18,657 nucleotides of DNA from a virus. This document shows, one piece after another, positions 50 to 18,607 of this stretch. The first letter of the stretch is position 1. Every line of letters begins with the position of its first letter. The notes beneath the pieces are model-generated. The model was given only the letters and a program-made list of their open reading frames with translations, was not told the origin of the DNA and did not search any database. A program made the position numbers and the translations under genes. Location of the stretch: the UHGV virus genome UHGV-0107297; one strand, written 5' to 3'.

Positions 50-1603
50 ATGACTGTTCGGATTGTATCAAATGCAGTCAATGCGCTGATTTCTGGCGCT
101 GATGACAACGTGAAACGGCTTGTTCAGGAGATGTTGAGCTATGAAGTGGAGGCTGGTGACTGGAAAGGGACCAGCACGATGTTCAACTGGAGTAAAAACG
201 CGTTCCCGGCTGGGTTTGCGAAGCCAGTTGCGACCAATCTTCTGAAAGCTGGCATCAAATGCGTGCATGTTCGCAAGGAAAAAGCTCCCGCGCTGGGTAA
301 GCCGAATCCGGTGGTTAACCCATTCCCGTATAACCCGGACTACGCGTATCAGGATCAGACAGTGGAAACACTGGTGCGCGAAGGGATGATGATTGCCCAG
401 ATTGCGACGGGTGGCGGTAAATCGAACGTAGCGTGTAAGGCTGCTGCTCGCATTGGTCGTATGACGCTGTTTTTAACCACGCGATCGGTTCTGATGTTCC
501 AGATGGCAGAGAACTTCCAGAAATCCATCGACTACCGCGCGAAGAATGGCGAGCCGTGGCTGAAAGGTCAGAAAGTTGGGGTGATTGGATCTGGTGAGTT
601 CCAGGTATCGCGCCATATCAACGTTGCCACGGTTCAGACCCTTGCTAGTTTTCTCGAAGAGCCGTCGCGCGACGCATCTCCAGAGAAAAAACAGTATCAC
701 CTGAAACGCCGGGAATTGGTTAAGCGCTTCCTGTCCAGCGTTTCTCTGCTGATTCTGGAAGAAGCGCACGAATCATCCGGCTCAAACTTCTACGATATAG
801 CCCGGTTGTGTACCAATGCCGACTACCGTCTGGCGCTGACAGCTACGCCGTTCATGAAGGACTCGACTGAAGCAAATATGCGTCTCATGGCCGTTGCGGG
901 TCGCATCGAGATAAAAGTAACGGAGAAATATTTGATCGACAGAGGTATTTTAGCGAAACCATACTTTTTATATCATAAAATCGCGTACACTCCAGATGAG
1001 GCGCGGATTAGAGTCGAACTTGCTTCAAAACACCTGAATTTTAGGGTTGGAATGAGCACGGCTTACCAGAAAGCCTATCAGTTAGGCATCGTCTATAATC
1101 TGGGCCGCAACGAAGCTATTGTGCGTGAAGCGCTAATGTACAAGAGTCACGGTCTGAACTGTATGACATTGGTTCGTCTGAAGCGTCATGGTCAGATCTT
1201 GATGGAAATGATGAAAGAGAGTGGCCTCAAGGTCGATTTCATCTACGGAGAATCAAACCAGACTACCCGACAAGCAAAACTTAATAGTCTGGCGGCAGGC
1301 AAGATAGATGTTCTCATTGGTTCAACCATTCTGGATGTTGGTGTCGACGTTCCAAGCGTAGGCGCGGTGATTCTGGGTGGTGGCGGGAAAGCAGAAGTTG
1401 AAATGAGACAGCGTGTCGGTCGTGGCTTACGAGCCAAGAAAAATCAGGCTAACGTGTGCTTTATTACCGACTTCATCGACGTGAGCAACAAATACCTCAT
1501 GTCGCATTCATATGAGCGGAAACACATTATCGACACGACGCCTGGGTTTGCCGAGGGGGGTCTTGCCGGTTGGCAGCACATTCGATTTCACTGTTTTGGA
1601 TAG
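50..1603 (+). CDS. Superfamily-2 DEAD/DEAH-type helicase, 517 aa (UvsW/Res-subunit-like core)
   Basis: SD AAGGAAAGAGG before ATG at 50; translation has Walker A IATGGGKS, DExH-like LILEEAHE, motif III ALTATP and motif VI QRVGRGLR in canonical order. Confidence 0.85.
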   Translation: MTVRIVSNAVNALISGADDNVKRLVQEMLSYEVEAGDWKGTSTMFNWSKNAFPAGFAKPVATNLLKAGIKCVHVRKEKAPALGKPNPVVNPFPYNPDYAYQDQTVETLVREGMMIAQIATGGGKSNVACKAAARIGRMTLFLTTRSVLMFQMAENFQKSIDYRAKNGEPWLKGQKVGVIGSGEFQVSRHINVATVQTLASFLEEPSRDASPEKKQYHLKRRELVKRFLSSVSLLILEEAHESSGSNFYDIARLCTNADYRLALTATPFMKDSTEANMRLMAVAGRIEIKVTEKYLIDRGILAKPYFLYHKIAYTPDEARIRVELASKHLNFRVGMSTAYQKAYQLGIVYNLGRNEAIVREALMYKSHGLNCMTLVRLKRHGQILMEMMKESGLKVDFIYGESNQTTRQAKLNSLAAGKIDVLIGSTILDVGVDVPSVGAVILGGGGKAEVEMRQRVGRGLRAKKNQANVCFITDFIDVSNKYLMSHSYERKHIIDTTPGFAEGGLAGWQHIRFHCFG

Positions 1604-3227: not shown

Positions 3228-3878
3228 ATGTCTAACGTTACCATTTCTAAAAAATCCATTATCGACGCTGCTGTGGTTATCGCTAATGAGTTACAAGTTG
3301 CAGCCAACAACGCTACTCAGACTTATAACAATCATTATAAAAATGGTACACACACAAAAGCGGATAAAGCTAACATGCTTGCAGCGTCTACCAAACTAGC
3401 ATACTTCACCAACAACGTTTTAAACGCTGTTAATGATGAGAAATTAGCTGGTATCTTTTACTACGCGATTAAAGCAAGTAAACAAGCACCTGAAGCGTTT
3501 TTCCGTGAAGCTATGACCAATAGCTATTCACTCGAAAAACTGGTTTATCTGGTTAAATCTATTAAAGCTGGAAAGTGTGTTTATTCCGTCGCTGATATGT
3601 CCGGATCTCGTGTATTCGCTTTAATCGATATGATTAACGACGAGATCGACACGTTCACCAATGGCGCTGTTTTCGATTTAATGAATGAAGCGAAAAAAGC
3701 CAACGAAATAAAATTAGACGCAGGATACACTCAAGCCAACCAGCTTATCAATCTTTGCGAACGTCTGGGACTGGTCGAAAAAATCAAAGGAATGGGTGCA
3801 GCGAAAAACGGATCACAGCAATATCGCTTCGTTAAAAATGATTTTTATAACTATCTGGCTGATGCTTTCAAAGCGTAA
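3228..3878 (+). CDS. hypothetical 216-aa protein, AT-rich gene
   Basis: SD AAGGA before ATG; low-GC composition unlike flanking genes; no motif recognised. Confidence 0.7.
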   Translation: MSNVTISKKSIIDAAVVIANELQVAANNATQTYNNHYKNGTHTKADKANMLAASTKLAYFTNNVLNAVNDEKLAGIFYYAIKASKQAPEAFFREAMTNSYSLEKLVYLVKSIKAGKCVYSVADMSGSRVFALIDMINDEIDTFTNGAVFDLMNEAKKANEIKLDAGYTQANQLINLCERLGLVEKIKGMGAAKNGSQQYRFVKNDFYNYLADAFKA

Positions 3879-3928: not shown

Positions 3929-4159
3929 ATGTTTGTTCTTATCGCTGGCGTTAACGTCCATAATGAATATTATGTTAATCGCATCGCTGGGATCGCTGGG
4001 ATCGCTGGGCGCGCAGTCGAGTTTATAAATGAAACAACGCGCAAAATTGACTTATTGAACGACCAGGAGCGAAAAAAAGCAGACGTGAATGACGCTGATA
4101 TATTTTTAATGTTAAAAGCGTTTGTAGAAATGGGATTCAAAATTAGTTTACACAAATAA
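3929..4159 (+). CDS. hypothetical 76-aa protein containing IAG-IAG-IAG
   Basis: SD AAGGAG 7 nt before ATG; contains 3 tandem 9-bp repeats. Confidence 0.55.
   Translation: MFVLIAGVNVHNEYYVNRIAGIAGIAGRAVEFINETTRKIDLLNDQERKKADVNDADIFLMLKAFVEMGFKISLHK
3983..4009 (+). repeat. 3 x 9-bp perfect tandem repeat ATCGCTGGG
   Basis: Direct reading: atcgctggg atcgctggg atcgctggg, in-frame inside CDS 3929-4159. Confidence 0.9.
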
Positions 4160-4165
4160 AATCGA

Positions 4166-4190
4166 GCGCCCACTATGGGCGCTTTTTTCG
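4166..4190 (+). terminator. rho-independent terminator, copy 2 of the same 19-bp palindrome
   Basis: AGCGCCCACTATGGGCGCT at 4166-4184 followed by TTTTTTC. Confidence 0.7.
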
Positions 4191-4589
4191 TTTCCAATAC
4201 TCCCACCATAACGCGCCATCATTAGCGCGTTTTTTATTGTCTTTAACTCGCTCCAACAACATAAAAATAAGCACCAAAATAACGCCATAGACGCGCTTTT
4301 ATATCCTTGTTAGTACATACACATTACTTAACACATTAACGCGCTTAAAACGCGTTATATTGCGCTATAGAGTATGGTTAATCATTGGCTTTTAGTCTTG
4401 CTATGTGATCCGCGTTTATTTGTCGGCGCGGATCGGCTCTTTGTGTTGTTTTGTATCCGCTCGCATATGATTGCCACGTTGGGCAACGTGTACGCGCTTA
4501 CAGTGATTTACCCACGGATTCACATAATCACATAGCGAAAGCTATCTGGATGGCCCAGGGGCTGAAACCCCCACCAGCGCTACCCCAGC

Positions 4590-4780
4590 GCCGCTACGCA
4601 ATTTCTGGCGCGATTCCGGGTTTCTCCCGCTCAGTTTTCTACATAAAGGCGACCCCCGCCGTTTCCCGAAAAAATCTTGGCCGTTTCCCGTCGGCTCATG
4701 AATGCGTTCCTCGCCGTTTCTGAAAATTTCCCTGCGGCAGCTGGTGGCTATAGAGAAAGGGCCGTTTCTGGCCCTCTTCT
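4590..4780. repeat. structured non-coding region with GCCGTTTCCCG / GCCGTTTCTG direct repeats (region A)
   Basis: Copies at about 4659, 4680, 4713 and 4761, plus gggtttctcccg at about 4611; shares CGTTTC(CC)TGAAAA...TTTCCCTGCGGC with 8693-8731. Confidence 0.5.
4758..4775 (-). terminator. terminator of CDS 4784-5266
   Basis: Minus strand reads AGGGCC-AGAAAC-GGCCCT then TTCTCTAT immediately after the stop. Confidence 0.45.
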
Positions 4781-4783
4781 CAG

Positions 4784-5266
4784 TTACACGCCATCAAGGA
4801 TGTGGATGCGGTTGCTTGCGTATACATTCAGCATAAAGTTAGCGCAAAACAGTTTCCATGTGTCAACGCCAGCGGCATACGTAATGTTTTTGCATTTTAT
4901 TGCATTGTTGGCGATCCGCATCCCCTGCGATACTGCTTCATCGTCGGAAAATTTGAACGACGATTGAGTTTTAATCCAGACAGAAATCTGCGTAGCGAAC
5001 TCAATCAGCTTGGACTGGCAGAATCGCCCGGAGCGTACCGGGAAGACAAATGTTCCGAAGCCAGAATTTGCGACATACGCTTTCTCAATTACCCGTGAGT
5101 AACGACGTTTGCAAATGATGTCGCGTGCAATAATGCATTTTTCTTGTGCTGACAGTTCTACCGTCTCATTGTCGCGCCATGCACCAAGTACTCGTTTTTC
5201 AATATCAGAGAACGTTACAGCGATATTGCCATGTGCGGGTGCGTTTACAGTAGCGATAAAATTCAT
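4784..5266 (-). CDS. hypothetical 160-aa protein
   Basis: SD AAGGAA 8 nt before ATG at 5266; box copy upstream. Confidence 0.65.
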   Translation of the reverse strand: MNFIATVNAPAHGNIAVTFSDIEKRVLGAWRDNETVELSAQEKCIIARDIICKRRYSRVIEKAYVANSGFGTFVFPVRSGRFCQSKLIEFATQISVWIKTQSSFKFSDDEAVSQGMRIANNAIKCKNITYAAGVDTWKLFCANFMLNVYASNRIHILDGV

Positions 5267-5282
5267 GATTAATTCCTTATCG

Positions 5283-5320
5283 TAAATAACAAATTGTTTT
5301 CTTGTTGGTGTTAATTATCG
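5283..5320 (-). promoter_or_regulatory. conserved box copy 1 (AAACAAATTGTTTTCTTGTTGGTGTTAATTATCG)
   Basis: Palindromic core AACAAATTGTT; minus-strand TTGACG-17-TAATTA overlaps it; about 20 nt before the SD of CDS 4784-5266. Confidence 0.5.
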
Positions 5321-5441
5321 TTGTACGAATAAGGCGTCAAAGTGGAAAGTTGCGGTAGCCGGACGGGAACAGGTGGGTTTGTCGGTTGCCTGGAGGTAAG
5401 AGGTTGGTGTTTTTAGCCTGCGGGAAACAGGATGGTCATTT

Positions 5442-5465
5442 AAGGCCACCAGCATTGGTGGCCTT
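5442..5465. terminator. GC hairpin AAGGCCACCA-GCAT-TGGTGGCCTT 3' of CDS 5471-5758
   Basis: Perfect 10-bp stem; no clean U-tract on either strand, so terminator or stabilising stem-loop. Confidence 0.35.
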
Positions 5466-5470
5466 ACTCT

Positions 5471-5758
5471 TTAGTGGAGCAGACCGATGTCGATGGTATC
5501 CCCTGAATCATCCACACGGATCATCAGCATGGCGAAGGCGTTTAGTGGATAGCTTGCGTGCCATTCAGGGAAGCGGTCATCTCGCATGAAGTCGGCAATG
5601 TCGTAAACGCAGCCCTCAAAGTGGAAGAATCGCGTGCTTACCTGCTCGTCATATTCCACATGATCCATTTCTTGCTGTTCTGTTTCCGGCAAGTCCAGCC
5701 ATGATTCAAGGAATACATTTTGTGCTTTAGGGGTAATGGTGAAATCAGTCATGAGCAT
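5471..5758 (-). CDS. hypothetical acidic 95-aa protein
   Basis: Track ORF 5471-5884 trimmed to in-frame ATG at 5758 (GTGAGGAT-ATG); D/E-rich; box copy 2 upstream. Confidence 0.55.
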   Translation of the reverse strand: MLMTDFTITPKAQNVFLESWLDLPETEQQEMDHVEYDEQVSTRFFHFEGCVYDIADFMRDDRFPEWHASYPLNAFAMLMIRVDDSGDTIDIGLLH

Positions 5759-5770
5759 ATCCTCACTGCG

Positions 5771-5804
5771 TAAACATATTGTTTTCTTGTTGGTGTAATT
5801 ATCG
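5771..5804 (-). promoter_or_regulatory. conserved box copy 2 (TAAACATATTGTTTTCTTGTTGGTGTAATTATCG)
   Basis: Near-identical to copy 1; abuts the SD of CDS 5471-5758. Confidence 0.5.
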
Positions 5805-5912
5805 CAGTGTAGATAAGGCATAAAAGAAGTTAATACAGGCTGAATACACAAGAAAGGTTCTGGAAGTTGATAGCCAGGTTTCAAACTAACCTTCGGTTAT
5901 TAAAAGTCATTT

Positions 5913-5936
5913 AAGACCACCAATGCTGGTGGCCTT
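5913..5936 (-). terminator. hairpin AAGACCACCA-ATGC-TGGTGGCCTT, relative of the 5442 hairpin
   Basis: 3' of the small ORF 5942-6085; minus strand continues AAATGACTTTTAAT. Confidence 0.4.
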
Positions 5937-5941
5937 AATAA

Positions 5942-6085
5942 TTATCGCCCGATTACGCTAAGGATCTTTTCCTCAACTGATTTGTTGTTGCGACTAAACT
6001 GCCTTGCGTATCTTATGACAGAAGAGGCGTTTCGCTTTCTGACCATCTCGGCTCTCTCCTTCAGGCGTTTCTTGAAATCGCCCAT
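5942..6085 (-). CDS. unannotated small basic ORF, 47 aa (MGDFKKRLKERAEMVRKRNASSVIRYARQFSRNNKSVEEKILSVIGR)
   Basis: ATG 2 nt after stop of CDS 6088-6462 (TAA-AT-ATG), GGTGG SD-like upstream, hairpin directly downstream; below the track length cutoff. Confidence 0.3.
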   Translation of the reverse strand: MGDFKKRLKERAEMVRKRNASSVIRYARQFSRNNKSVEEKILSVIGR

Positions 6086-6087
6086 AT

Positions 6088-6462
6088 TTACCACCAGGCA
6101 CGGAACGTCAGTCTGTTATTGTGAAAGTCGTGGTTCCTGATCAGGTCTTCCACAAGTTTTTTCAGCTTATCCACGTCATGCCAGTAACCTTCATCGTACT
6201 CCTGACTGCCGAAGAAAAAACCTTCCCGGGTAGGTAAGTACACTTCGCAATTACTTTCGTTTATGTGCATCAAATGAGCCTTCAGAAAACAAATGTCATT
6301 CATCGTTAATTCTAAAAGCTCACAATTTTCGACTTCACCTACGTTGCGCTCCATCCACCCAACGAGCGCATTGAACTTACGGAAGTAAGCAACCTGCTTT
6401 CTGGATGCCTCGTTATTCAGATCGTTTTTAGGCTGCGTCTCGATATAGATATCAAGTCCCAT
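6088..6462 (-). CDS. hypothetical acidic 124-aa protein
   Basis: Track ORF begins with GTG at 6504 inside the box; in-frame ATG at 6462 has SD TAAGGATA. Confidence 0.6.
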   Translation of the reverse strand: MGLDIYIETQPKNDLNNEASRKQVAYFRKFNALVGWMERNVGEVENCELLELTMNDICFLKAHLMHINESNCEVYLPTREGFFFGSQEYDEGYWHDVDKLKKLVEDLIRNHDFHNNRLTFRAWW

Positions 6463-6513
6463 GATGGTATCCTTATTAAGTTGCTTCAGTGAAATCATTT
6501 TCACAAATCAGAT

Positions 6514-6540
6514 AAGGCAGAAAACAAATTGTTATCGGGA
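6514..6540. promoter_or_regulatory. conserved box copy 3, inverted orientation (AAGGCAGAAAACAAATTGTTATCGGG)
   Basis: Same palindromic core, flank on the other side; lies between the 6541-6570 terminator and CDS 6088-6462. Confidence 0.45.
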
Positions 6541-6570
6541 ATAAGAAAATGGCGCGGTTTACGCGCCATT
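6541..6570 (-). terminator. rho-independent terminator of CDS 6580-6975
   Basis: Minus strand: AATGGCGCG-TAAAC-CGCGCCATT then TTCTTATT. Confidence 0.6.
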
Positions 6571-6579
6571 CAAAGAGGA

Positions 6580-6975
6580 TTAAGCGAATACGCTTTCAGG
6601 GACAATGGTGTCGATCTTTTCGCCGGAGATTATTCGCAGACCGTGTTGTCCCATCCAGGTACTATTGGTATTTAAACTCGATGTATAAACCGCATCGACC
6701 TTTTTCATCAAATTTTCAAACAACGTCTGATCCGCGCCACGGAAATGAGTTTCCAGTTTTATCAGTAAAGGGTCAGAAGCATTACTGATGCTTTGGTAAC
6801 GCACCGAATATTTTCCCTTTGTGGCCTCGCCGGTGCGAGTTAAGGTACTGGTGTGAACTTCTTCGCCGGAGGCATTATCGCGTAGCACAATTGTAATTTT
6901 TGCAACTTTGTCTCCATTTTCCGTCTCTGATGCATAATACATATCCAGGGTCAGATTTTCGCGTTTAACGGTCAT
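6580..6975 (-). CDS. hypothetical 131-aa protein
   Basis: Strong SD ACTAAGGAGAGTGAA before ATG at 6975. Confidence 0.7.
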   Translation of the reverse strand: MTVKRENLTLDMYYASETENGDKVAKITIVLRDNASGEEVHTSTLTRTGEATKGKYSVRYQSISNASDPLLIKLETHFRGADQTLFENLMKKVDAVYTSSLNTNSTWMGQHGLRIISGEKIDTIVPESVFA

Positions 6976-7030
6976 TTCACTCTCCTTAGTGTTTAATTTT
7001 TAATTTTATTATCATAAGTAAGTACTTACA

Positions 7031-7062
7031 ATACAAAAAAGCCCCGAAGGATTGGCGGGGCT
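7031..7062 (-). terminator. rho-independent terminator of CDS 7097-7408
   Basis: Minus strand: AGCCCCGCC-AATCC-TTCGGGGCT then TTTTTTGTATTG. Confidence 0.7.
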
Positions 7063-7096
7063 GTCGTACATTCGACTAACTACTGCTTGCACATGT

Positions 7097-7408
7097 TTAA
7101 GCTACCGCCTGAACAGACGCTCGTTGGATCTCTTGTTGGGCGACACGGTTGGCTTCCATCAGCGCCAGTTCAAGCTGGTCCTCTGGCCACATTTTCTGGA
7201 CCGACATCCACCCTCTTCCACGCTGGCGACGAACTACCATCACATAGCGCGTAAAATTGCCCGCGTCGAAGGTAATGGCTTTTTCACGAAACAGACGGAT
7301 AGAAGTCCCATTCGCTACGATATCCAGCAATGTGAGATGCCCCATTAAGGTTGGTTTTTCTTTTCTCTCCTGACCTTCAGCAAGACCCAGCACCAATGAA
7401 GTATTCAT
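7097..7408 (-). CDS. hypothetical 103-aa protein
   Basis: Track ORF trimmed to in-frame ATG at 7408 (MNTSLVLG) with SD GGAG; box copy 4 upstream. Confidence 0.55.
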   Translation of the reverse strand: MNTSLVLGLAEGQERKEKPTLMGHLTLLDIVANGTSIRLFREKAITFDAGNFTRYVMVVRRQRGRGWMSVQKMWPEDQLELALMEANRVAQQEIQRASVQAVA

Positions 7409-7418
7409 CACCACTCCG

Positions 7419-7455
7419 TAAACAAATTGTTTTCTCAATGGCGTAAATAATACCA
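7419..7455 (-). promoter_or_regulatory. conserved box copy 4, subfamily b (AAACAAATTGTTTTCTCAATGGCGTAAATAATACC)
   Basis: Same core with a different distal flank, shared with copy 5. Confidence 0.5.
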
Positions 7456-7536
7456 GTGTAAAAACGGCTACAAAGCATATTGCTCAGGCACATGAATTAT
7501 CTAAAGGTGGTTCTTCCCTGCGGCTACAGAGAAGTT

Positions 7537-7559
7537 AAGCCAGCAGGCGGTGCTGGCTT
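7537..7559 (-). terminator. hairpin AAGCCAGCA-GGCGG-TGCTGGCTT 3' of CDS 7569-7898
   Basis: 9-bp stem; weak U-tract. Confidence 0.3.
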
Positions 7560-7568
7560 TGGTTGGGT

Positions 7569-7898
7569 TTACGCGAATACATCAAGGAACTCCTGAACGT
7601 CCCAATGCTGGACAAGGTGAAGATAGAGCTTAGAAATCACGTCATTCTCGCTATCGCATGTGAAGTAGTACTTCTGGCTGCGGTTGTATGTATCCACACA
7701 AAATTCGCTCATATCCATAAAGTCAGCATCATCACCCAGGTCGCAAATAATCAAAGCAGGAGCATCATCACGAGTCATCAGCTCAAGCACCCAGCGCGAA
7801 TTGATCAGCGTGGAAGACCAACCTTCTAACTCATAAAACTGGTCAAACTCTTTTTGAGTCATTTTCTTGATTTGGTTGATGTCGATATTTGCAAACAT
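7569..7898 (-). CDS. hypothetical acidic 109-aa protein
   Basis: Track ORF trimmed to in-frame ATG at 7898 (MFANIDIN) with SD AAGGA; D-rich. Confidence 0.55.
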   Translation of the reverse strand: MFANIDINQIKKMTQKEFDQFYELEGWSSTLINSRWVLELMTRDDAPALIICDLGDDADFMDMSEFCVDTYNRSQKYYFTCDSENDVISKLYLHLVQHWDVQEFLDVFA

Positions 7899-7909
7899 AA
7901 CGCAATCCT

Positions 7910-7945
7910 TAAACATGTTGTTTTCTGAATTGCGTAAACAATACC
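7910..7945 (-). promoter_or_regulatory. conserved box copy 5, subfamily b (AAACATGTTGTTTTCTGAATTGCGTAAACAATACC)
   Basis: Aligns with copy 4 over about 35 bp. Confidence 0.5.
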
Positions 7946-8009
7946 AGTAAGAAAACGGCCACAAAGTATATCGTTACGGTGCTGCGCTGCCCCGGAGGTT
8001 AATAGCGAC

Positions 8010-8030
8010 AAAAGCCACCGTGCTGGTGGC
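8010..8030 (-). terminator. rho-independent terminator of CDS 8038-8256
   Basis: Minus strand: GCCACCAGCACGGTGGC then TTTTGTCGC. Confidence 0.5.
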
Positions 8031-8037
8031 CTCACTC

Positions 8038-8256
8038 TTAATCTTCGTCGCCCGGGAACTCGCTGTGTACCGCGTCCACCAGCTCCCGCTTTTCATCTTC
8101 ACTCAGCAGGTGCCAGATATCCTTCCCTTTGGGCGATTCCCCTTCTGCCGGGACGAACGACCACAACTTGCGGTACAACTCCGGCCCCACTGCATCCAGA
8201 CACTCAGCCAGGGAATCCACGCCCCACACCTCAACCGTCACAGGCATCTTAATCAT
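8038..8256 (-). CDS. hypothetical acidic 72-aa protein
   Basis: ATG at 8256 preceded by GTGAGGATGAAGAG; D/E-rich. Confidence 0.55.
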   Translation of the reverse strand: MIKMPVTVEVWGVDSLAECLDAVGPELYRKLWSFVPAEGESPKGKDIWHLLSEDEKRELVDAVHSEFPGDED

Positions 8257-8286
8257 CTCTTCATCCTCACTTCGTTTATATAACGT

Positions 8287-8322
8287 CTAAACATGTTGTT
8301 TACTTGTTGGTGTTATTATCGC
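8287..8322 (-). promoter_or_regulatory. conserved box copy 6 (AAACATGTTGTTTACTTGTTGGTGTTATTATCG)
   Basis: Subfamily a; upstream of CDS 8038-8256. Confidence 0.5.
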
Positions 8323-8589
8323 AATAAGACAAAGGCGGAAAAGGATTTTATGTCGTGAAAGCCAGGCTGGGCAGTGAATATCCGGGAACGACACGGGAGC
8401 CAGTATTTACGATATTCTGCTCTACGCGCGCCACGGGGCTGGTGGGCAGAATATCCTTCTCCCCGAAAACCTACTGAAATAGCTTGAGACCCAATGATGG
8501 TCTGGCAGAATGGAGTCCAGTAGCTGCACGAGAGGGAATGACACTCCCCCGCGATTTTCAGGCGAGTGAAGAGTAAGGCGCACTCCCGA

Positions 8590-8770
8590 AGATTTCCCGC
8601 ACCGCTCCCGCAGTCGTCCCTCACTCTGTACCGGGATGTACCCGTTTCCCGACCGGCAGCCAGCCTTTCCCCGGTTCGTATAGCGGGATTCCCACCGTTT
8701 CCCTGAAAACCTCAAGCCTTTTCCCTGCGGCGACGCTCCCGTTCCTGAAAAGGGACATAGCTTTCCCGGA
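8590..8770. repeat. cluster of about 7 YTTTCCC(G) repeats (region B)
   Basis: gatttcccgc 8591, cccgtttcccgacc 8641, cctttccccgg 8665, ccgtttccctg 8695, ccttttccctgcgg 8718, cccgttcctg 8738, gctttcccgg 8760; related to region A. Confidence 0.5.
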
Positions 8771-8954
8771 TGGCCCGAAGGCTGACCGAAGGGGTGGAAA
8801 GGGACGTTACGGGGGATGAAAACTATGGCTTGAATTTATGCGGAAAAAGTGGCGATACCCCTCCTTCCCTTCCCACTTATACCTCCCACGAATTTTCTCT
8901 CTTATGTGGGCATAAACCTTCCCTCTGATAACGCTCTATACGGCGAGTATTCCT

Positions 8955-9480
8955 TTGGGTGAAATGGGTGGTTTGTTCTTTCTACCGGCATATGTGGTTT
9001 CGTTCTTCTTGAGGTGGTTCTTCTCTGTGTTTTCGTCTGGGTTGTTCTCGTCGTTTTGGTGAGTGTTCTTCTCCGTGTATGGAGTAATGGCAGGTGCGCT
9101 TTTCTCTTCGTTTACGTGAAATGATGAAAGTGTGGGTAATGGCAGTAGGGCGCTTTAGTTGTTCTCCGCATATGAAGTAATGGCGTTCCCTGCTATTCAG
9201 GAATTTGCGCTCTCTTTCGGGGTAATGGTGGGTAAACGAGATTGTGACGGCTCCTGTTCTTGTCTGGGTTTGTCCGGGGTTTCGTTCTGGCTGTTCTTCT
9301 CCGTGTATTGGGTAATGACGTATCGGGGTTTGCGCGTGCGAACCGCGTTCTCGGTTGCCTGGGAATATTAGGTGGGTGGTCTGTAGCCTGGGGCAATGAG
9401 GTGGGTCTTTTCGGTAGTCTGACAGGAAGAGGTGGGTGTTTCCGGGATTGTGGGTAATGGCGTCTCTGGGTTTCCTGTGG
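8955..9480. repeat. degenerate G/T-rich repeat array, no convincing ORF
   Basis: About 22-bp GKTKKTTCTTCTC units at 8960-9080; GTAATGG at 9084, 9136, 9177, 9222, 9312 (GTAATGA) and 9455; a 26-bp block GTTCTTCTCCGTGTATNGRGTAATGRC at 9065 and 9293; strong G+T strand bias. Confidence 0.6.
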
Positions 9481-9546
9481 GGGTTGTTAACTTGTTTTCT
9501 TATGCCTGAAAACAACTTGTTTAGATGCCCAATATAACGCAACGGG

Positions 9547-9571
9547 AGCGCTTCTGAGCGCTTCTGTTTTT
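9547..9571 (+). terminator. plus-strand rho-independent terminator at the right end of the repeat array
   Basis: AGCGC-TTCTGA-GCGCT hairpin followed by TCTGTTTTTGAG. Confidence 0.45.
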
Positions 9572-9714
9572 GAGTGATATCACGAGTCGTTTTTGACGTT
9601 TTGGTCGCAGGGAGATGGATTCTGGTGCGCAGGATTTTGGGTATAAGAGATGGCTTGCGAAAACGTCAACTTTTTAGACCAAATCAGAGGAAAGCGTTGA
9701 CTTTTCGTTGACGT

Positions 9715-9748
9715 GTTATTTATTTGTTTTCTTATGGGTGTAATTGGC
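9715..9748 (-). promoter_or_regulatory. degenerate conserved-box copy (TTATTTATTTGTTTTCTTATGGGTGTAATTGG), no gene downstream
   Basis: Matches the subfamily-a flank with only half of the palindrome; adjacent GTTGAC/GTCAAC repeats at 9664-9712. Confidence 0.3.
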
Positions 9749-9865
9749 TTAAATGCCTTGTCACCCCTGGGCTGGGGTAGGTTGGAGAGGTGGGGGAAGT
9801 GGCGATCAACGGACTCTTATAGAAATCCTCAATTTGTGACCGCCAATGTCAACGAGTTGCAGCCG

Positions 9866-15583: not shown

Positions 15584-15664
15584 TTATTCACTTTATTCAC
15601 AGGCCCGATCCAATATTTAGATCCCCAGAGAGATCCTACAGAAGATCAAAAGAGATCCCCGATC
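15584..15664. promoter_or_regulatory. origin module copy A: tandem DnaA-box-like sites plus six GATC sites
   Basis: TTATTCACT/TTATTCACA at 15584-15601; GATC at 15607, 15620, 15632, 15644, 15654, 15661. Confidence 0.6.
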
Positions 15665-15702
15665 GTCTCCAGCGCTTGCGGTTACTGGCTTGAGAAGGGG
15701 TT

Positions 15703-15810
15703 ACTATCCACTATAGGGAGCAAAATAACCACTGTAGAGAGCATAATAACCGCTATGAAGAGCAAAACAACCTCTCTGGAGAGTAGTCGGTATCCACTGT
15801 AGTGAGTAGG
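15703..15810. repeat. iteron set A, 5 copies at 24-bp spacing
   Basis: ATCCACTATAGGGAGCA, AACCACTGTAGAGAGCA, AACCGCTATGAAGAGCA, AACCTCTCTGGAGAGTAG, ATCCACTGTAGTGAGTAG. Confidence 0.7.
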
Positions 15811-15967
15811 AGACAATGTTTTAACTGGATAACTCCGAGCCTGTTTTTCTGCGGCAGATGGCTGATATTCTTGGAAATATTGTAAATTTTGCGTTGCGGC
15901 GTGTTTATTTCGATCACACATTATCCCCAGAAGGGGAGTGATGCCTGATTTTGTAATTATCTGATTT

Positions 15968-16040
15968 TTATACACAGGCCCGATCCAGTAATTCAGATCC
16001 CTGTTAGAACCAAAGAGAACCACAAAGACCCAAAGAGATC
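15968..16040. promoter_or_regulatory. origin module copy B: DnaA-box-like site plus three GATC sites
   Basis: TTATACACA at 15968-15976 followed by the same GGCCCGATCC junction as copy A; GATC at 15982, 15996, 16037. Confidence 0.55.
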
Positions 16041-16087
16041 CCCGGCCCCTGCAAACCGTTGTGCCACATGGCTTTAGAGGTTATCGA

Positions 16088-16220
16088 TATCCACTATAGT
16101 GAGAAGAACAACCACTATAGAGAGTAAATCAACCACTATGGAGAGTAGAAAAACCGCTGTAGGCGGTAGGATAACCACTGTGATGGGTGCTACTATCCAC
16201 TGTAATCAGTAAAGGCACCC
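16088..16220. repeat. iteron set B, 6 copies at 24-bp spacing, immediately upstream of repA
   Basis: ATCCACTATAGTGAGAAG, AACCACTATAGAGAGTAA, AACCACTATGGAGAGTAG, AACCGCTGTAGGCGGTAG, AACCACTGTGATGGGTGC, ATCCACTGTAATCAGTAA. Confidence 0.75.
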
Positions 16221-16249: not shown

Positions 16250-17305
16250 ATGAGCGTAAACGACAATAAAAACATTGCGATAAGCGAAGCATTTTCCGAA
16301 ACAGACAAAAAGACCGGCGAAGTTGTTACGTTAGTTCCTAACACCAACAACACAGTTCAGCCTGTTGCTCTGATGCGTCTTGGTCTCTTCGTTCCGACGC
16401 TGAAATCGACATCCAGGGGTAGAAAGGGGCAAATGGTCTCTATGGACGCCTCCGCTGAACTCAAACAGCTGTCTCTGGCCAAAGCCGAAGGGTACGAGGA
16501 TATAAGGATTGCTGGTCTTCGTCTTGATATGGATAACGATTTCAAAACATGGGTGGGCATCATCCACGCGTTCGCCAAGCACAAGGTTGTTGGTGACACC
16601 GTCACGTTGCCGTTCGTCGAGTTCGTCAGACTTTGTGGCATACCAACAGCCAGATCGTCCGCGAAGTTACGTAAGCGCCTGGACAGCTCTCTAAGTCGTA
16701 TCGCCACAAACACCATCTCATTCCGCAGCAAAGGCTCTGAAGAGTATTACGTTACGCACCTTGTGCAGACGGCAAAGTACAGTACCAAGAATGACACGGT
16801 CGAACTGAAGGCCGATCCTAAGATTTTCGAACTTTACCAGTTCGACAAAAAGGTGCTTTTGCAACTTCGGGCCATCAACGAACTCTCCAGAAAGGAATCC
16901 GCGCAGGCGCTCTACACCTTCATTGAAAGTTTGCCACCAGACCCGGCGCCAATCTCATTGGCTCGCTTACGCGCCAGACTTAACTTAACCAGCCGCACCA
17001 TTACCCAGAATGCGACAGTCAGGAAGGCGATGGAGCAGCTGCGAGAGATCGGCTATCTCGATTACACTGAAGTGAAACGCGGCAGCTCGGTCTACTTCGT
17101 CATCCACTATAGACGGCCGAAGTTACGTTCGGCACTGCCGCCATCTATGGCTACGCCTGAAGAGCCAGAAGATATCTTGCCAGGTGATGATCCGGAGGAC
17201 ATTATCGATGTTGCCCCTGAAGAAAAAGACGGGGAAATGGTCATGTTGAGCAAGGAAGAACTGGCGATTCTCGAAGAGCTGCGCAAGGCAAAGGCTCGCA
17301 AATAG
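16250..17305 (+). CDS. repA: iteron-binding replication initiator, RepFIB/P1 RepA family, 351 aa
   Basis: Flanked on both sides by iterons; conserved blocks recalled from RepFIB initiators ([62 protein letters not shown]). Confidence 0.85.
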
Positions 17306-18214: not shown

Positions 18215-18607
18215 CTAATGACTGCCCTGATCGCTGTGGAACATCACCCCGCCGGGCTTACCACGGGTTTCCCATGCCATTTCCAGCGATTTCATGGTGA
18301 GCCTGCTGTCCGGCGAGAACGACATGGCCCAGCCCACTTGTTTTCTTGCGAACAGGTCGAGAACAACGGCGAGGTACGCCCAGCGCTTACCCGTCCAGAT
18401 ATAGGTCACATCACCGCACCACACCTGATTTGGCTCGGTCACGGCGAACTGCCGTTCAAGGTAGTTAGGGATAGCAACATGTTCATGACCACCACGTTTA
18501 TACCGGTGAGTCGGCTGCTGACAGCTGACCAGCCCCAGCTCCTTGGCAATTTGACGTCCTTTCAGGCCTGGTGACCCACCTAATAACTCTGAGACTGCCT
18601 TCAGCAA
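18215..18607 (-). CDS. IS3-family transposase OrfB, N-terminal part only
   Basis: [35 protein letters not shown]...HSDQGSH matches the DDE region of IS3-family OrfB; frame ends at TAG 18215 where homologs continue; orfA would lie beyond the window. Confidence 0.7.

Follow-up and report, generated by a model that had tools for sequence, protein, structure and literature searches.

What is the function of two related non-coding regions that stand on either side of an island of small genes in a viral genome? The question arises from the UHGV virus genome UHGV-0107297, which was analysed over its whole length of 18,657 nucleotides (18.6 kb; the window). The two regions, A and B, had been described in an original prediction as dispersed, related and structured, and two readings had been offered for them: single-strand promoters of the Frpo/ssi type, as in the leading region of conjugative plasmids, or binding arrays for an unknown protein. 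Our analysis favours the second. Judged by their sequences, the two regions are arrays of direct repeats set in helical phase and are paralogous to each other, and we see an even chance that they are docking platforms on double-stranded DNA for a protein of the element's backbone, with a 216-amino-acid (216-aa) protein encoded nearby as the candidate, and that they loop or insulate the gene island between them.

Both regions consist of a single motif, (G)CCGTTTCCC(G/T), repeated on the same strand, and all units in both arrays point one way. Each unit combines a conserved core of 10-14 bp, (G)CCGTTTCCC(G/T)(GAAA), with a free spacer, and several units are extended to TTTC(N1-3)GAAA, which forms a short dyad. 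The spacing of the units is mostly 21-23 bp, corresponding to two helical turns, with occasional steps of 9-13 or 31-35 bp; in B, the successive spacings from the unit at 8641 onwards are 22, 22, 9, 22, 22 and 21 bp (Table 1). The sequences quoted in the original prediction are present (CCGTTTCTGAAAATTTCCCTGCGGCAGC at 4714-4741 and CCGTTTCCCTGAAAACCTCAAGCCTTTTCCCTGCGGCGAC at 8695-8734), and the relationship that it proposed between the two regions is borne out both by the motif clusters and by the local alignment of A with B, which scores 31 as against 18.2 +/- 2.65 for dinucleotide shuffles (2 of 1,000 shuffles reach 31) and aligns 4654-4726 with 8690-8751 as its core. Also as predicted, both regions are GC-rich (0.54-0.61, compared with ~0.40-0.45 in the flanks) and bracket the small-gene island; they carry no annotation in the records of relatives.

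The motif is specific to the two arrays. On the + strand of the window there are six copies of CCGTTTC, at 4659, 4681, 4714, 4762, 8642 and 8695, and every one falls in A or B; the - strand has one copy. In 100 kb of the related phage SSU5, all three occurrences of CGTTTCCC fall in the homologues of A and B, and TTCCCTGCGG occurs twice, once in each homologue. A position weight matrix (PWM) was built from nine units of the window; scores at or above the cut-off of 14 bits are reached only in A and B, in the window as well as in SSU5, and matches outside the arrays (~10, with 5.8 +/- 2.5 expected) are at chance level. When one mismatch is allowed, CCGTTTCCC is found 10 times in the whole window against 3.9 expected, a weak excess: the signal of the motif is its clustering, not its total count. 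A scan for the exact pattern CCGTTTCCC-N13-CCGTTTCCC across genomes was uninformative, as it was swamped by apparent chance matches in unrelated taxa, and a search of full-text literature for the motif strings returned unrelated primers only.

The element that carries the arrays was typed by comparing the 4.7-kb stretch around them with plasmid and phage records. This stretch matches 773 plasmids at up to 98.8% identity, of which 744 are typed as non-mobilizable, from Klebsiella, Escherichia, Enterobacter, Yersinia and Salmonella hosts; the phages SSU5, Cyrano, PhiR41_1 and CMS-2020a match it as well. Annotated relatives have genes for a tail fibre and terminase as well as an IncFIB-type replicon. 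Based on these matches and on the gene content of the relatives, the window is part of an SSU5/pHCM2/pMT1-type phage-plasmid and not of a conjugative plasmid.

Relatives of this element were used to ask how the arrays evolve. The comparison set comprised 77 IMG/VR loci together with fetched plasmids (about 80 relatives), ten diverged members of which were used for alignments. In about 80 relatives, two same-strand clusters occupy the corresponding syntenic places; their units are spaced by 21-23 bp, which predominates, or by 31-33 bp. Across the ten diverged relatives the motif cores are invariant, whereas the spacers between them change; the number of units in B ranges from three to eight, and a Citrobacter plasmid (L007) has lost exactly one 22-bp unit. 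Even in the most distant relatives, whose 216-aa protein is 63-69% identical to that of the window, the GCCGTTTCCCGAAA core is unchanged, with fewer copies, and B of one relative resembles A of the window, as expected for paralogues. A rearranged relative, L090, still carries an A-type site between the genes for a 158-aa and a 215-aa protein. This combination of invariant cores, drifting spacers, a variable unit number and the deletion of a single 22-bp unit favours binding arrays, the fallback of the original prediction. The motif is identical in relatives with IncFIB, rep_cluster_488 and rep_cluster_763 replicons, and RepA of the window has two 21-bp iteron sets of its own (CCACTATAGAGAGCAAAATAA; 15708-15783 and 16091-16162). 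Since the motif thus does not follow replicon type and RepA has other iterons, RepA was rejected as the binder.

The reading of A and B as Frpo/ssi elements, whether single-strand promoters or primosome sites, in the leading region of a conjugative plasmid is hardly credible and, at the level testable here, is refuted. What speaks for it is a loose resemblance, in that related non-coding repeats flank small genes, and the presence near the homologous region of DUF1380 and DUF5983 genes, which also occur in conjugative plasmids. The replicon, however, is a non-conjugative phage-plasmid. Searches by blastn with A and with B returned only the SSU5-like plasmid family and no IncF or IncI plasmids, and a word-7 comparison with the leading region of F (50-68 kb of F) gave only chance-level matches (best E 0.085), the ssi sequences of ColIb not being compared directly; the repeated elements of F's own leading region are unrelated to A and B. 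Folding argues in the same direction. As single-stranded DNA, B has z values of +1.6 and +1.0 relative to shuffles for its two strands, that is, it is less foldable than the shuffles, and folding of the B alignment (236 columns) yields -10.4 and -2.2 kcal/mol, without covariation or conserved pairs. The z values of A (-3.0 and -2.5) are low because of the terminator hairpin at 4752-4780 and a long-range pairing between CCACCAGC and GCTGGTGG, which shows no covariation and is not supported by the relatives. No promoter-like site was called within A or B. The term 'structured' thus finds no support for either region. An inverted repeat had also been proposed near 8405-8450; one does exist there (GATATTCTGC/GCAGAATATC), but it lies outside array B and shows no compensatory change in the Klebsiella relatives.

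If A and B are bound as double-stranded DNA, the best candidate for the binding protein is the 216-aa protein (phrog_1513), whose gene lies close to A. Its N-terminal region is predicted to be helical and its C-terminal part to form a winged helix (H124-137, E142-144, H145-158, H168-179, E183-185, E198-201), and the residues of the putative recognition helix and wing (Y167-Y199) are at least 90% conserved across the family. Its fold matches are generic and include TubR, no Rep-family domain was found in it, and sequence searches of the PDB with the 216-aa protein, a 160-aa protein of the island and the FljA-like protein encoded beside A gave no matches. Other candidates were considered and set aside. 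The FljA-like protein is an unlikely binder, as L090 keeps the sites without its gene and the protein varies (56-95% identity) while the motif is invariant. A lead towards the R sites of lambda cosB and their binder Nu1, which came from a resemblance to CGTTTCC, was dropped: the small terminase of SSU5 gave no Pfam match, and the large terminase protein, TerL, of SSU5 matches the T4-like N-terminal domain family Terminase_6N. No evidence was found for A and B as a centromere for the ParA of SSU5; a repeat array was not seen next to SSU5 parA, but neither was any link of that gene with A or B.

In the explanation we favour, A and B would act as multi-site platforms on double-stranded DNA for a sequence-specific protein of the conserved phage backbone, and the 216-aa winged-helix protein would occupy the cores of both arrays. 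A spacing of ~22 bp places successive cores on one face of the helix and so would allow cooperative binding. Two such platforms, in the same orientation and ~4 kb apart, would stand at both ends of a series of small, individually promoted genes, and the bound arrays may pair by looping or may serve as boundaries; the pairing or boundary would then control or insulate expression of the island in the plasmid-prophage state and in early infection. What binding would achieve is something we infer, and looping or insulation is conjecture outright. Several points weigh against this explanation. The PWM scan outside A and B, where matches are at chance level, found no operator-like sites at the island promoters, which leaves direct regulation of these promoters hypothetical. 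Plasmid pMT1 (L002; 8300-9200) keeps A unchanged but has IS1541 in place of the rest of the island, B and C (C being the non-coding region that follows B), and contig L082 (8680-9710) shows the opposite loss, B and C being present while A is missing and a single island gene is left; thus, neither array alone is essential for plasmid carriage. The occurrence of the 216-aa gene in all relatives is partly a matter of construction, many of the loci having been found with that gene. Lastly, roles in replication or packaging fit the geometry about as well. The options that we infer for the arrays are island looping or insulation, a bipartite replication element and a packaging or injection signal.

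Table 1. Features of the window at and around arrays A and B, with positions counted from its first nucleotide
Feature	Position	Strand	Remarks
SF2 helicase, XPB/UvsW-like	50-1603	+	First gene of the operon beside A
Operon after the helicase		+	92-aa protein, lipoprotein, PF03614 FljA-like protein, 216-aa protein, 76-aa protein
FljA-like gene, PF03614 'repressor of phase-1 flagellin'	2336-2905 (likely start 2378)	+	Full-length domain, E 1.9e-95
216-aa protein, phrog_1513	3228-3878	+	Candidate binder; ~740 bp from A
76-aa protein gene	3929-4159	+	Last of the operon
Two terminator-like hairpins	4164-4184, 4210-4231	+	End the operon; bound A on the left
Conserved non-coding block left of A (CCCACGGATTCACATAATCACATAGCGAAAGCTATCTGGATGG...)	4480-4590	+	Includes small hairpin GGRGCTGAAACYCC
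Array A	~4615-4747	+	Strong units GCCGTTTCCCGAAA (4658), GCCGTTTCCCGTCG (4680), GCCGTTTCTGAAAA (4713)
Array A, weak units	near 4618, 4703, 4726	+	TTTCCCTGCGGC at 4726
Chi, GCTGGTGG	4740-4747	+	Follows the array A units
Intrinsic terminator of the 160-aa gene	4752-4780	-	GGGCC-AGAAAC-GGCCC then TTTCTCT; bounds A on the right
Small-gene island	4784-8256	-	Seven or eight genes, bracketed by A and B
Inverted repeat GATATTCTGC/GCAGAATATC	8411-8420 / 8446-8455	+	Outside array B; encloses Chi at 8438
Array B	8589-8772	+	Units start at 8641, 8663, 8685 (weak), 8694, 8716, 8738, 8759
Array B, additional weak unit	8589	+	
Conserved non-coding block right of B (...GTTACGGGGGATGAAAACTATGGCTTGAATTTATGCGGAAAAAGTGGCGA...CTTATACC...TAACGCTCTATACGG)	8773-8990	+	
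Region C, non-coding	8990-9860		~0.9 kb; contiguous with B
Plasmid replicon	15584-16162; 16250-17305		Iterons and DnaA boxes; Rep3-family RepA

The surroundings of the arrays bear on these options. Array A lies in a pocket between convergent terminators (4164-4231 on the left and 4752-4780 on the right), and the stem of the right-hand terminator shows a compensatory change among relatives (GGGCC/GGCCC versus GGGGC/GCCCC). An AT-rich stretch (GC 0.37) follows the terminators of the + strand operon and adjoins A. A block within the conserved sequence left of A, GGATGGCCCAGGGGCTGA, recurs at 8768-8785, to the right of B. On the left side of B, a unit-like CTCCCCGAAAACCT (8459-8472) lies 3' of the inverted repeat; this repeat (8411-8455) is poorly conserved, and GGCTGGTGGGCAG and CCCGAAAACCT within 8411-8472 are invariant. 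No conserved fold of RNA or single-stranded DNA was found in 8760-9010. Region C is 94% identical to SSU5, compared with ~75-80% for the flanking genes, and its + strand is rich in G and T (A 0.14, C 0.17). The region contains five or six GTAATGGC units, which align as degenerate copies with the promoter blocks of the island genes (TGCCATTAC versus TGCGATAAT), four 30-nt units TAGCCTGGGGcAAtGAGGTGGGT at 9345-9470, five CGTTGAY sites at 9664-9855 and two promoter-operator-like blocks (9470-9540 and 9690-9775). An open reading frame (ORF) at 8982-9542 has no PHROG match, the Rfam 15 covariance models give no match in A, B or C at E <=1, and a tRNA scan of the three regions found nothing.

One alternative, which we consider very unlikely, is that the arrays act as RNA: they would be transcribed, with GGGAAACGG repeats on the - strand, and serve as a sponge or target for a protein such as CsrA or the FljA-like protein. 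B does lie in the main direction of transcription, downstream of the promoter-like blocks of region C, and GGGAA is found seven times on its - strand against 1.2 expected; furthermore, the adjacent operon carries the PF03614 FljA-like gene, and FljA has been reported to bind fliC mRNA. However, the CsrA-type motif ANGGA is not enriched, neither presentation in hairpins nor a conserved fold was found, A stands behind terminators on both sides, and a 22-bp helical phasing is meaningless for RNA. The persistence of the sites in L090 without the FljA-like gene, and the variation of that protein beside an invariant motif, count here as they do for binding of DNA. The fliC leader of E. coli has no convincing match to the motif, and the Rfam search gave nothing.

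A second alternative is that A and B mark terminase or injection-control sites, for example the boundaries of terminal repeats, with the island and B/C forming the counterpart of the first-step-transfer (FST) region of phage T5. In the pre-early region of T5, small genes lie among untranslated repeat regions whose conservation exceeds that of the ORFs, and related repeats ~3 kb apart accompany a 1.2-kb repeat region (bioRxiv 10.1101/866236). This layout resembles that of the island and B/C, TerL of SSU5 shares ~26% identity with T5-like terminases across 91% of its length, and a Chi site adjoins both arrays (4740 and 8438). Yet neither DNA nor protein shows similarity to the terminal repeat of T5, paired DnaA boxes, a hallmark of the T5 region, are absent, and the T5 repeats are inverted whereas those of A and B are direct. 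The TerL clade is shared with 40-45 kb phages of the Kagunavirus and Salmonella-siphovirus types, no phage record opens at A or B or has the island twice, and the terminase genes lie ~8 kb from A. Thus, a packaging or injection signal seems to us quite unlikely.

In a third alternative, the arrays would be the iteron clusters of a second origin, one probably used in the lytic phase and comparable to ori and crr of P4, with the winged helix-turn-helix protein as initiator or adaptor and the SF2 helicase assisting. Direct repeats phased at 22 bp are the classic iteron format, two clusters of one motif lie ~4 kb apart, and the AT-rich stretch that adjoins A (GC 0.37) contains hairpins. In addition, the operon beside A encodes both the XPB/UvsW-like helicase and the winged helix-turn-helix protein, and B and C are missing from pMT1, which is not known to produce phage. 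On the other hand, DnaA boxes show no enrichment (44 found against 38 expected), whether at A, at B or at C; no exact box lies in A or B, and the boxes cluster at the RepA origin instead, where exact boxes at 15593 and 15968 accompany the iterons. Moreover, the 216-aa protein lacks a Rep-family domain and has generic fold matches, the genes for a DnaB-type helicase, a primase and a polymerase lie 35-55 kb away in SSU5, and the GC skew of SSU5 merely mirrors gene orientation. An origin role for A and B is therefore, in our view, unlikely.

The gene order around the arrays is conserved in the relatives: the + strand operon and a long run of small - strand genes (4784-8256 and beyond) are convergent. 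Most island genes are preceded by a conserved block of ~65 nt (- strand; 5262-5352, 5748-5838, 6458-6548, 7404-7494, 7894-7984 and 8252-8352) that comprises TGCGATAAT, which is extended -10-like, a palindrome AACAA(N)TTGTT and a Shine-Dalgarno sequence; the copy before the 124-aa gene (6458-6548) is more divergent than the others. From its composition, the block looks like a repeated promoter-operator cassette, and each island gene would then form a transcription unit that can be repressed individually. Several of the island genes are followed by terminator hairpins. Those at 5440-5466, 5911-5938 and 8013-8031 are built on GGCCACCAGC...GCTGGTGGCC and hence contain the Chi octamer, which occurs 11 times in the window against ~0.6 by chance and 28 times in the 100 kb of SSU5. 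Three 30-nt units of the region C type (GCC.G..GG.AA..AGGTGGGT) occupy 5350-5435, immediately upstream of the 160-aa gene's promoter block, and relatives keep these units beside that block. A link seen by eye between the 30-nt units (5350-5435 and 9345-9470) and the A/B motif is not claimed, given the chance-level PWM matches outside the arrays.

Other observations concern the wider element. The FljA-like gene is conserved in the phage-plasmid backbone and is missing from the rearranged L090. Within the 76-aa gene, a perfect 9-nt tandem repeat, ATCGCTGGG x3 at 3983-4009, encodes IAG-IAG-IAG. In the relatives examined for this (L090-L093 and pMT1), the interval upstream of the helicase, which separates the helicase operon from the terminase genes, holds a conserved divergent operon. 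Its products are two ParB_N-domain proteins, an ABC-type ATPase and small proteins, with no recognised DNA-binding domain among them. The repA region of SSU5 lies ~30 kb from the A/B region, which indicates that, in comparison with SSU5, the element of the window has been rearranged or shortened. The right edge of the window (18215-18607) holds an ORF with an rve integrase core domain, a fragment of an IS-type transposase.

SSU5-type phage-plasmids are common in clinical Enterobacteriaceae, where pHCM2 of S. Typhi, pMT1 of Y. pestis and ~110-kb elements of Klebsiella and E. coli are examples, and their control circuitry is essentially unmapped. The arrays rank with the best-conserved sequences of the family, as does the 1.25-kb non-coding block next to them, and none of these is annotated in any record examined; likewise, we found no description of the A/B regions in the literature on SSU5, pHCM2, pMT1 and phage-plasmids. 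Knowledge of the binder and its role would provide a handle on the switch between plasmid and phage and on the control of a variable, probably early, island of small genes, and the conserved core can serve as a simple marker of the family. A bolder proposal, to which we assign a low but appreciable probability, is that A, B and region C jointly make up a cis-acting machine of the phage genome during infection or replication, either a P4-like bipartite lytic origin with a new winged-helix initiator or a T5-like 'first-transfer' control region. In its T5-like form, such a machine would govern staged entry, protection of the ends through the Chi sites beside the arrays and expression, from the outset, of the small genes between them in a temperate phage-plasmid.

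As regards known systems, the arrays are best filed, on the strength of their repeat pattern, with the broad class of phased direct-repeat binding arrays, their binding being putative; what is unusual is the paired arrangement around a gene island and the hyper-conserved non-coding block attached to it. With the Frpo/ssi elements of F they share the presence of dispersed, related non-coding elements near small genes, but they have no homology to them, B lacks a stable single-strand hairpin and the replicon is not conjugative. The likeness to RR2/RR3 of the T5 FST region is one of layout only: conserved non-coding repeats lie among small early genes, with related copies kilobases apart and a repeat-rich non-coding block of ~1.2 kb that is better conserved than the neighbouring ORFs, and the TerL proteins are distantly related. 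The two differ in that there is no sequence similarity, paired DnaA boxes are missing here and the T5 copies are inverted.

Centromere arrays, such as tubC bound by TubR and parC/parH of type Ib, consist of short direct repeats bound cooperatively by small winged-helix or ribbon-helix-helix proteins, and the phage-plasmid N15 has dispersed centromeres. A and B resemble them as short direct-repeat arrays, in the presence of TubR among the fold matches of the 216-aa protein and in the dispersal of sites on a phage-plasmid. Unlike these systems, no partner NTPase of the parA or tubZ type is encoded beside A or B (parA of SSU5 is 60 kb away), and pMT1 keeps array A unchanged although it carries its own P7-type par locus. 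Plasmid iteron arrays, such as incC/incA of P1 and the 22-bp iterons of R6K, likewise have phased direct repeats of ~22 bp with a conserved core and a variable spacer, arranged in two arrays of variable unit number. In contrast to these, A and B are not beside a Rep gene, the RepA of the window has different, 21-bp iterons 7 kb away, and the A/B motif is constant across replicon types and is not associated with DnaA boxes.

P4 carries two clusters of the octamer TGTTCACC, ori and crr, ~4.5 kb apart, which are bound by the winged-helix domain of the alpha protein. The A/B motif is unrelated to this octamer, there is no primase-helicase fusion, and the P4 repeats occur in both orientations whereas those of A and B are all direct; the two systems nevertheless share a pair of dispersed clusters of one short motif, kilobases apart, and a winged-helix protein (predicted, in our case) encoded nearby. 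In lambda, the operator triplets OL and OR are joined by CI-mediated looping, and the operators are palindromic and overlap divergent promoters. The units of A and B differ from them in being mostly asymmetric and of a single orientation, with no promoter overlap found, but as in lambda there are two multi-site arrays with a spacing of ~23 bp that lie kilobases apart and bracket a block of genes, an arrangement in which long-range looping is possible.

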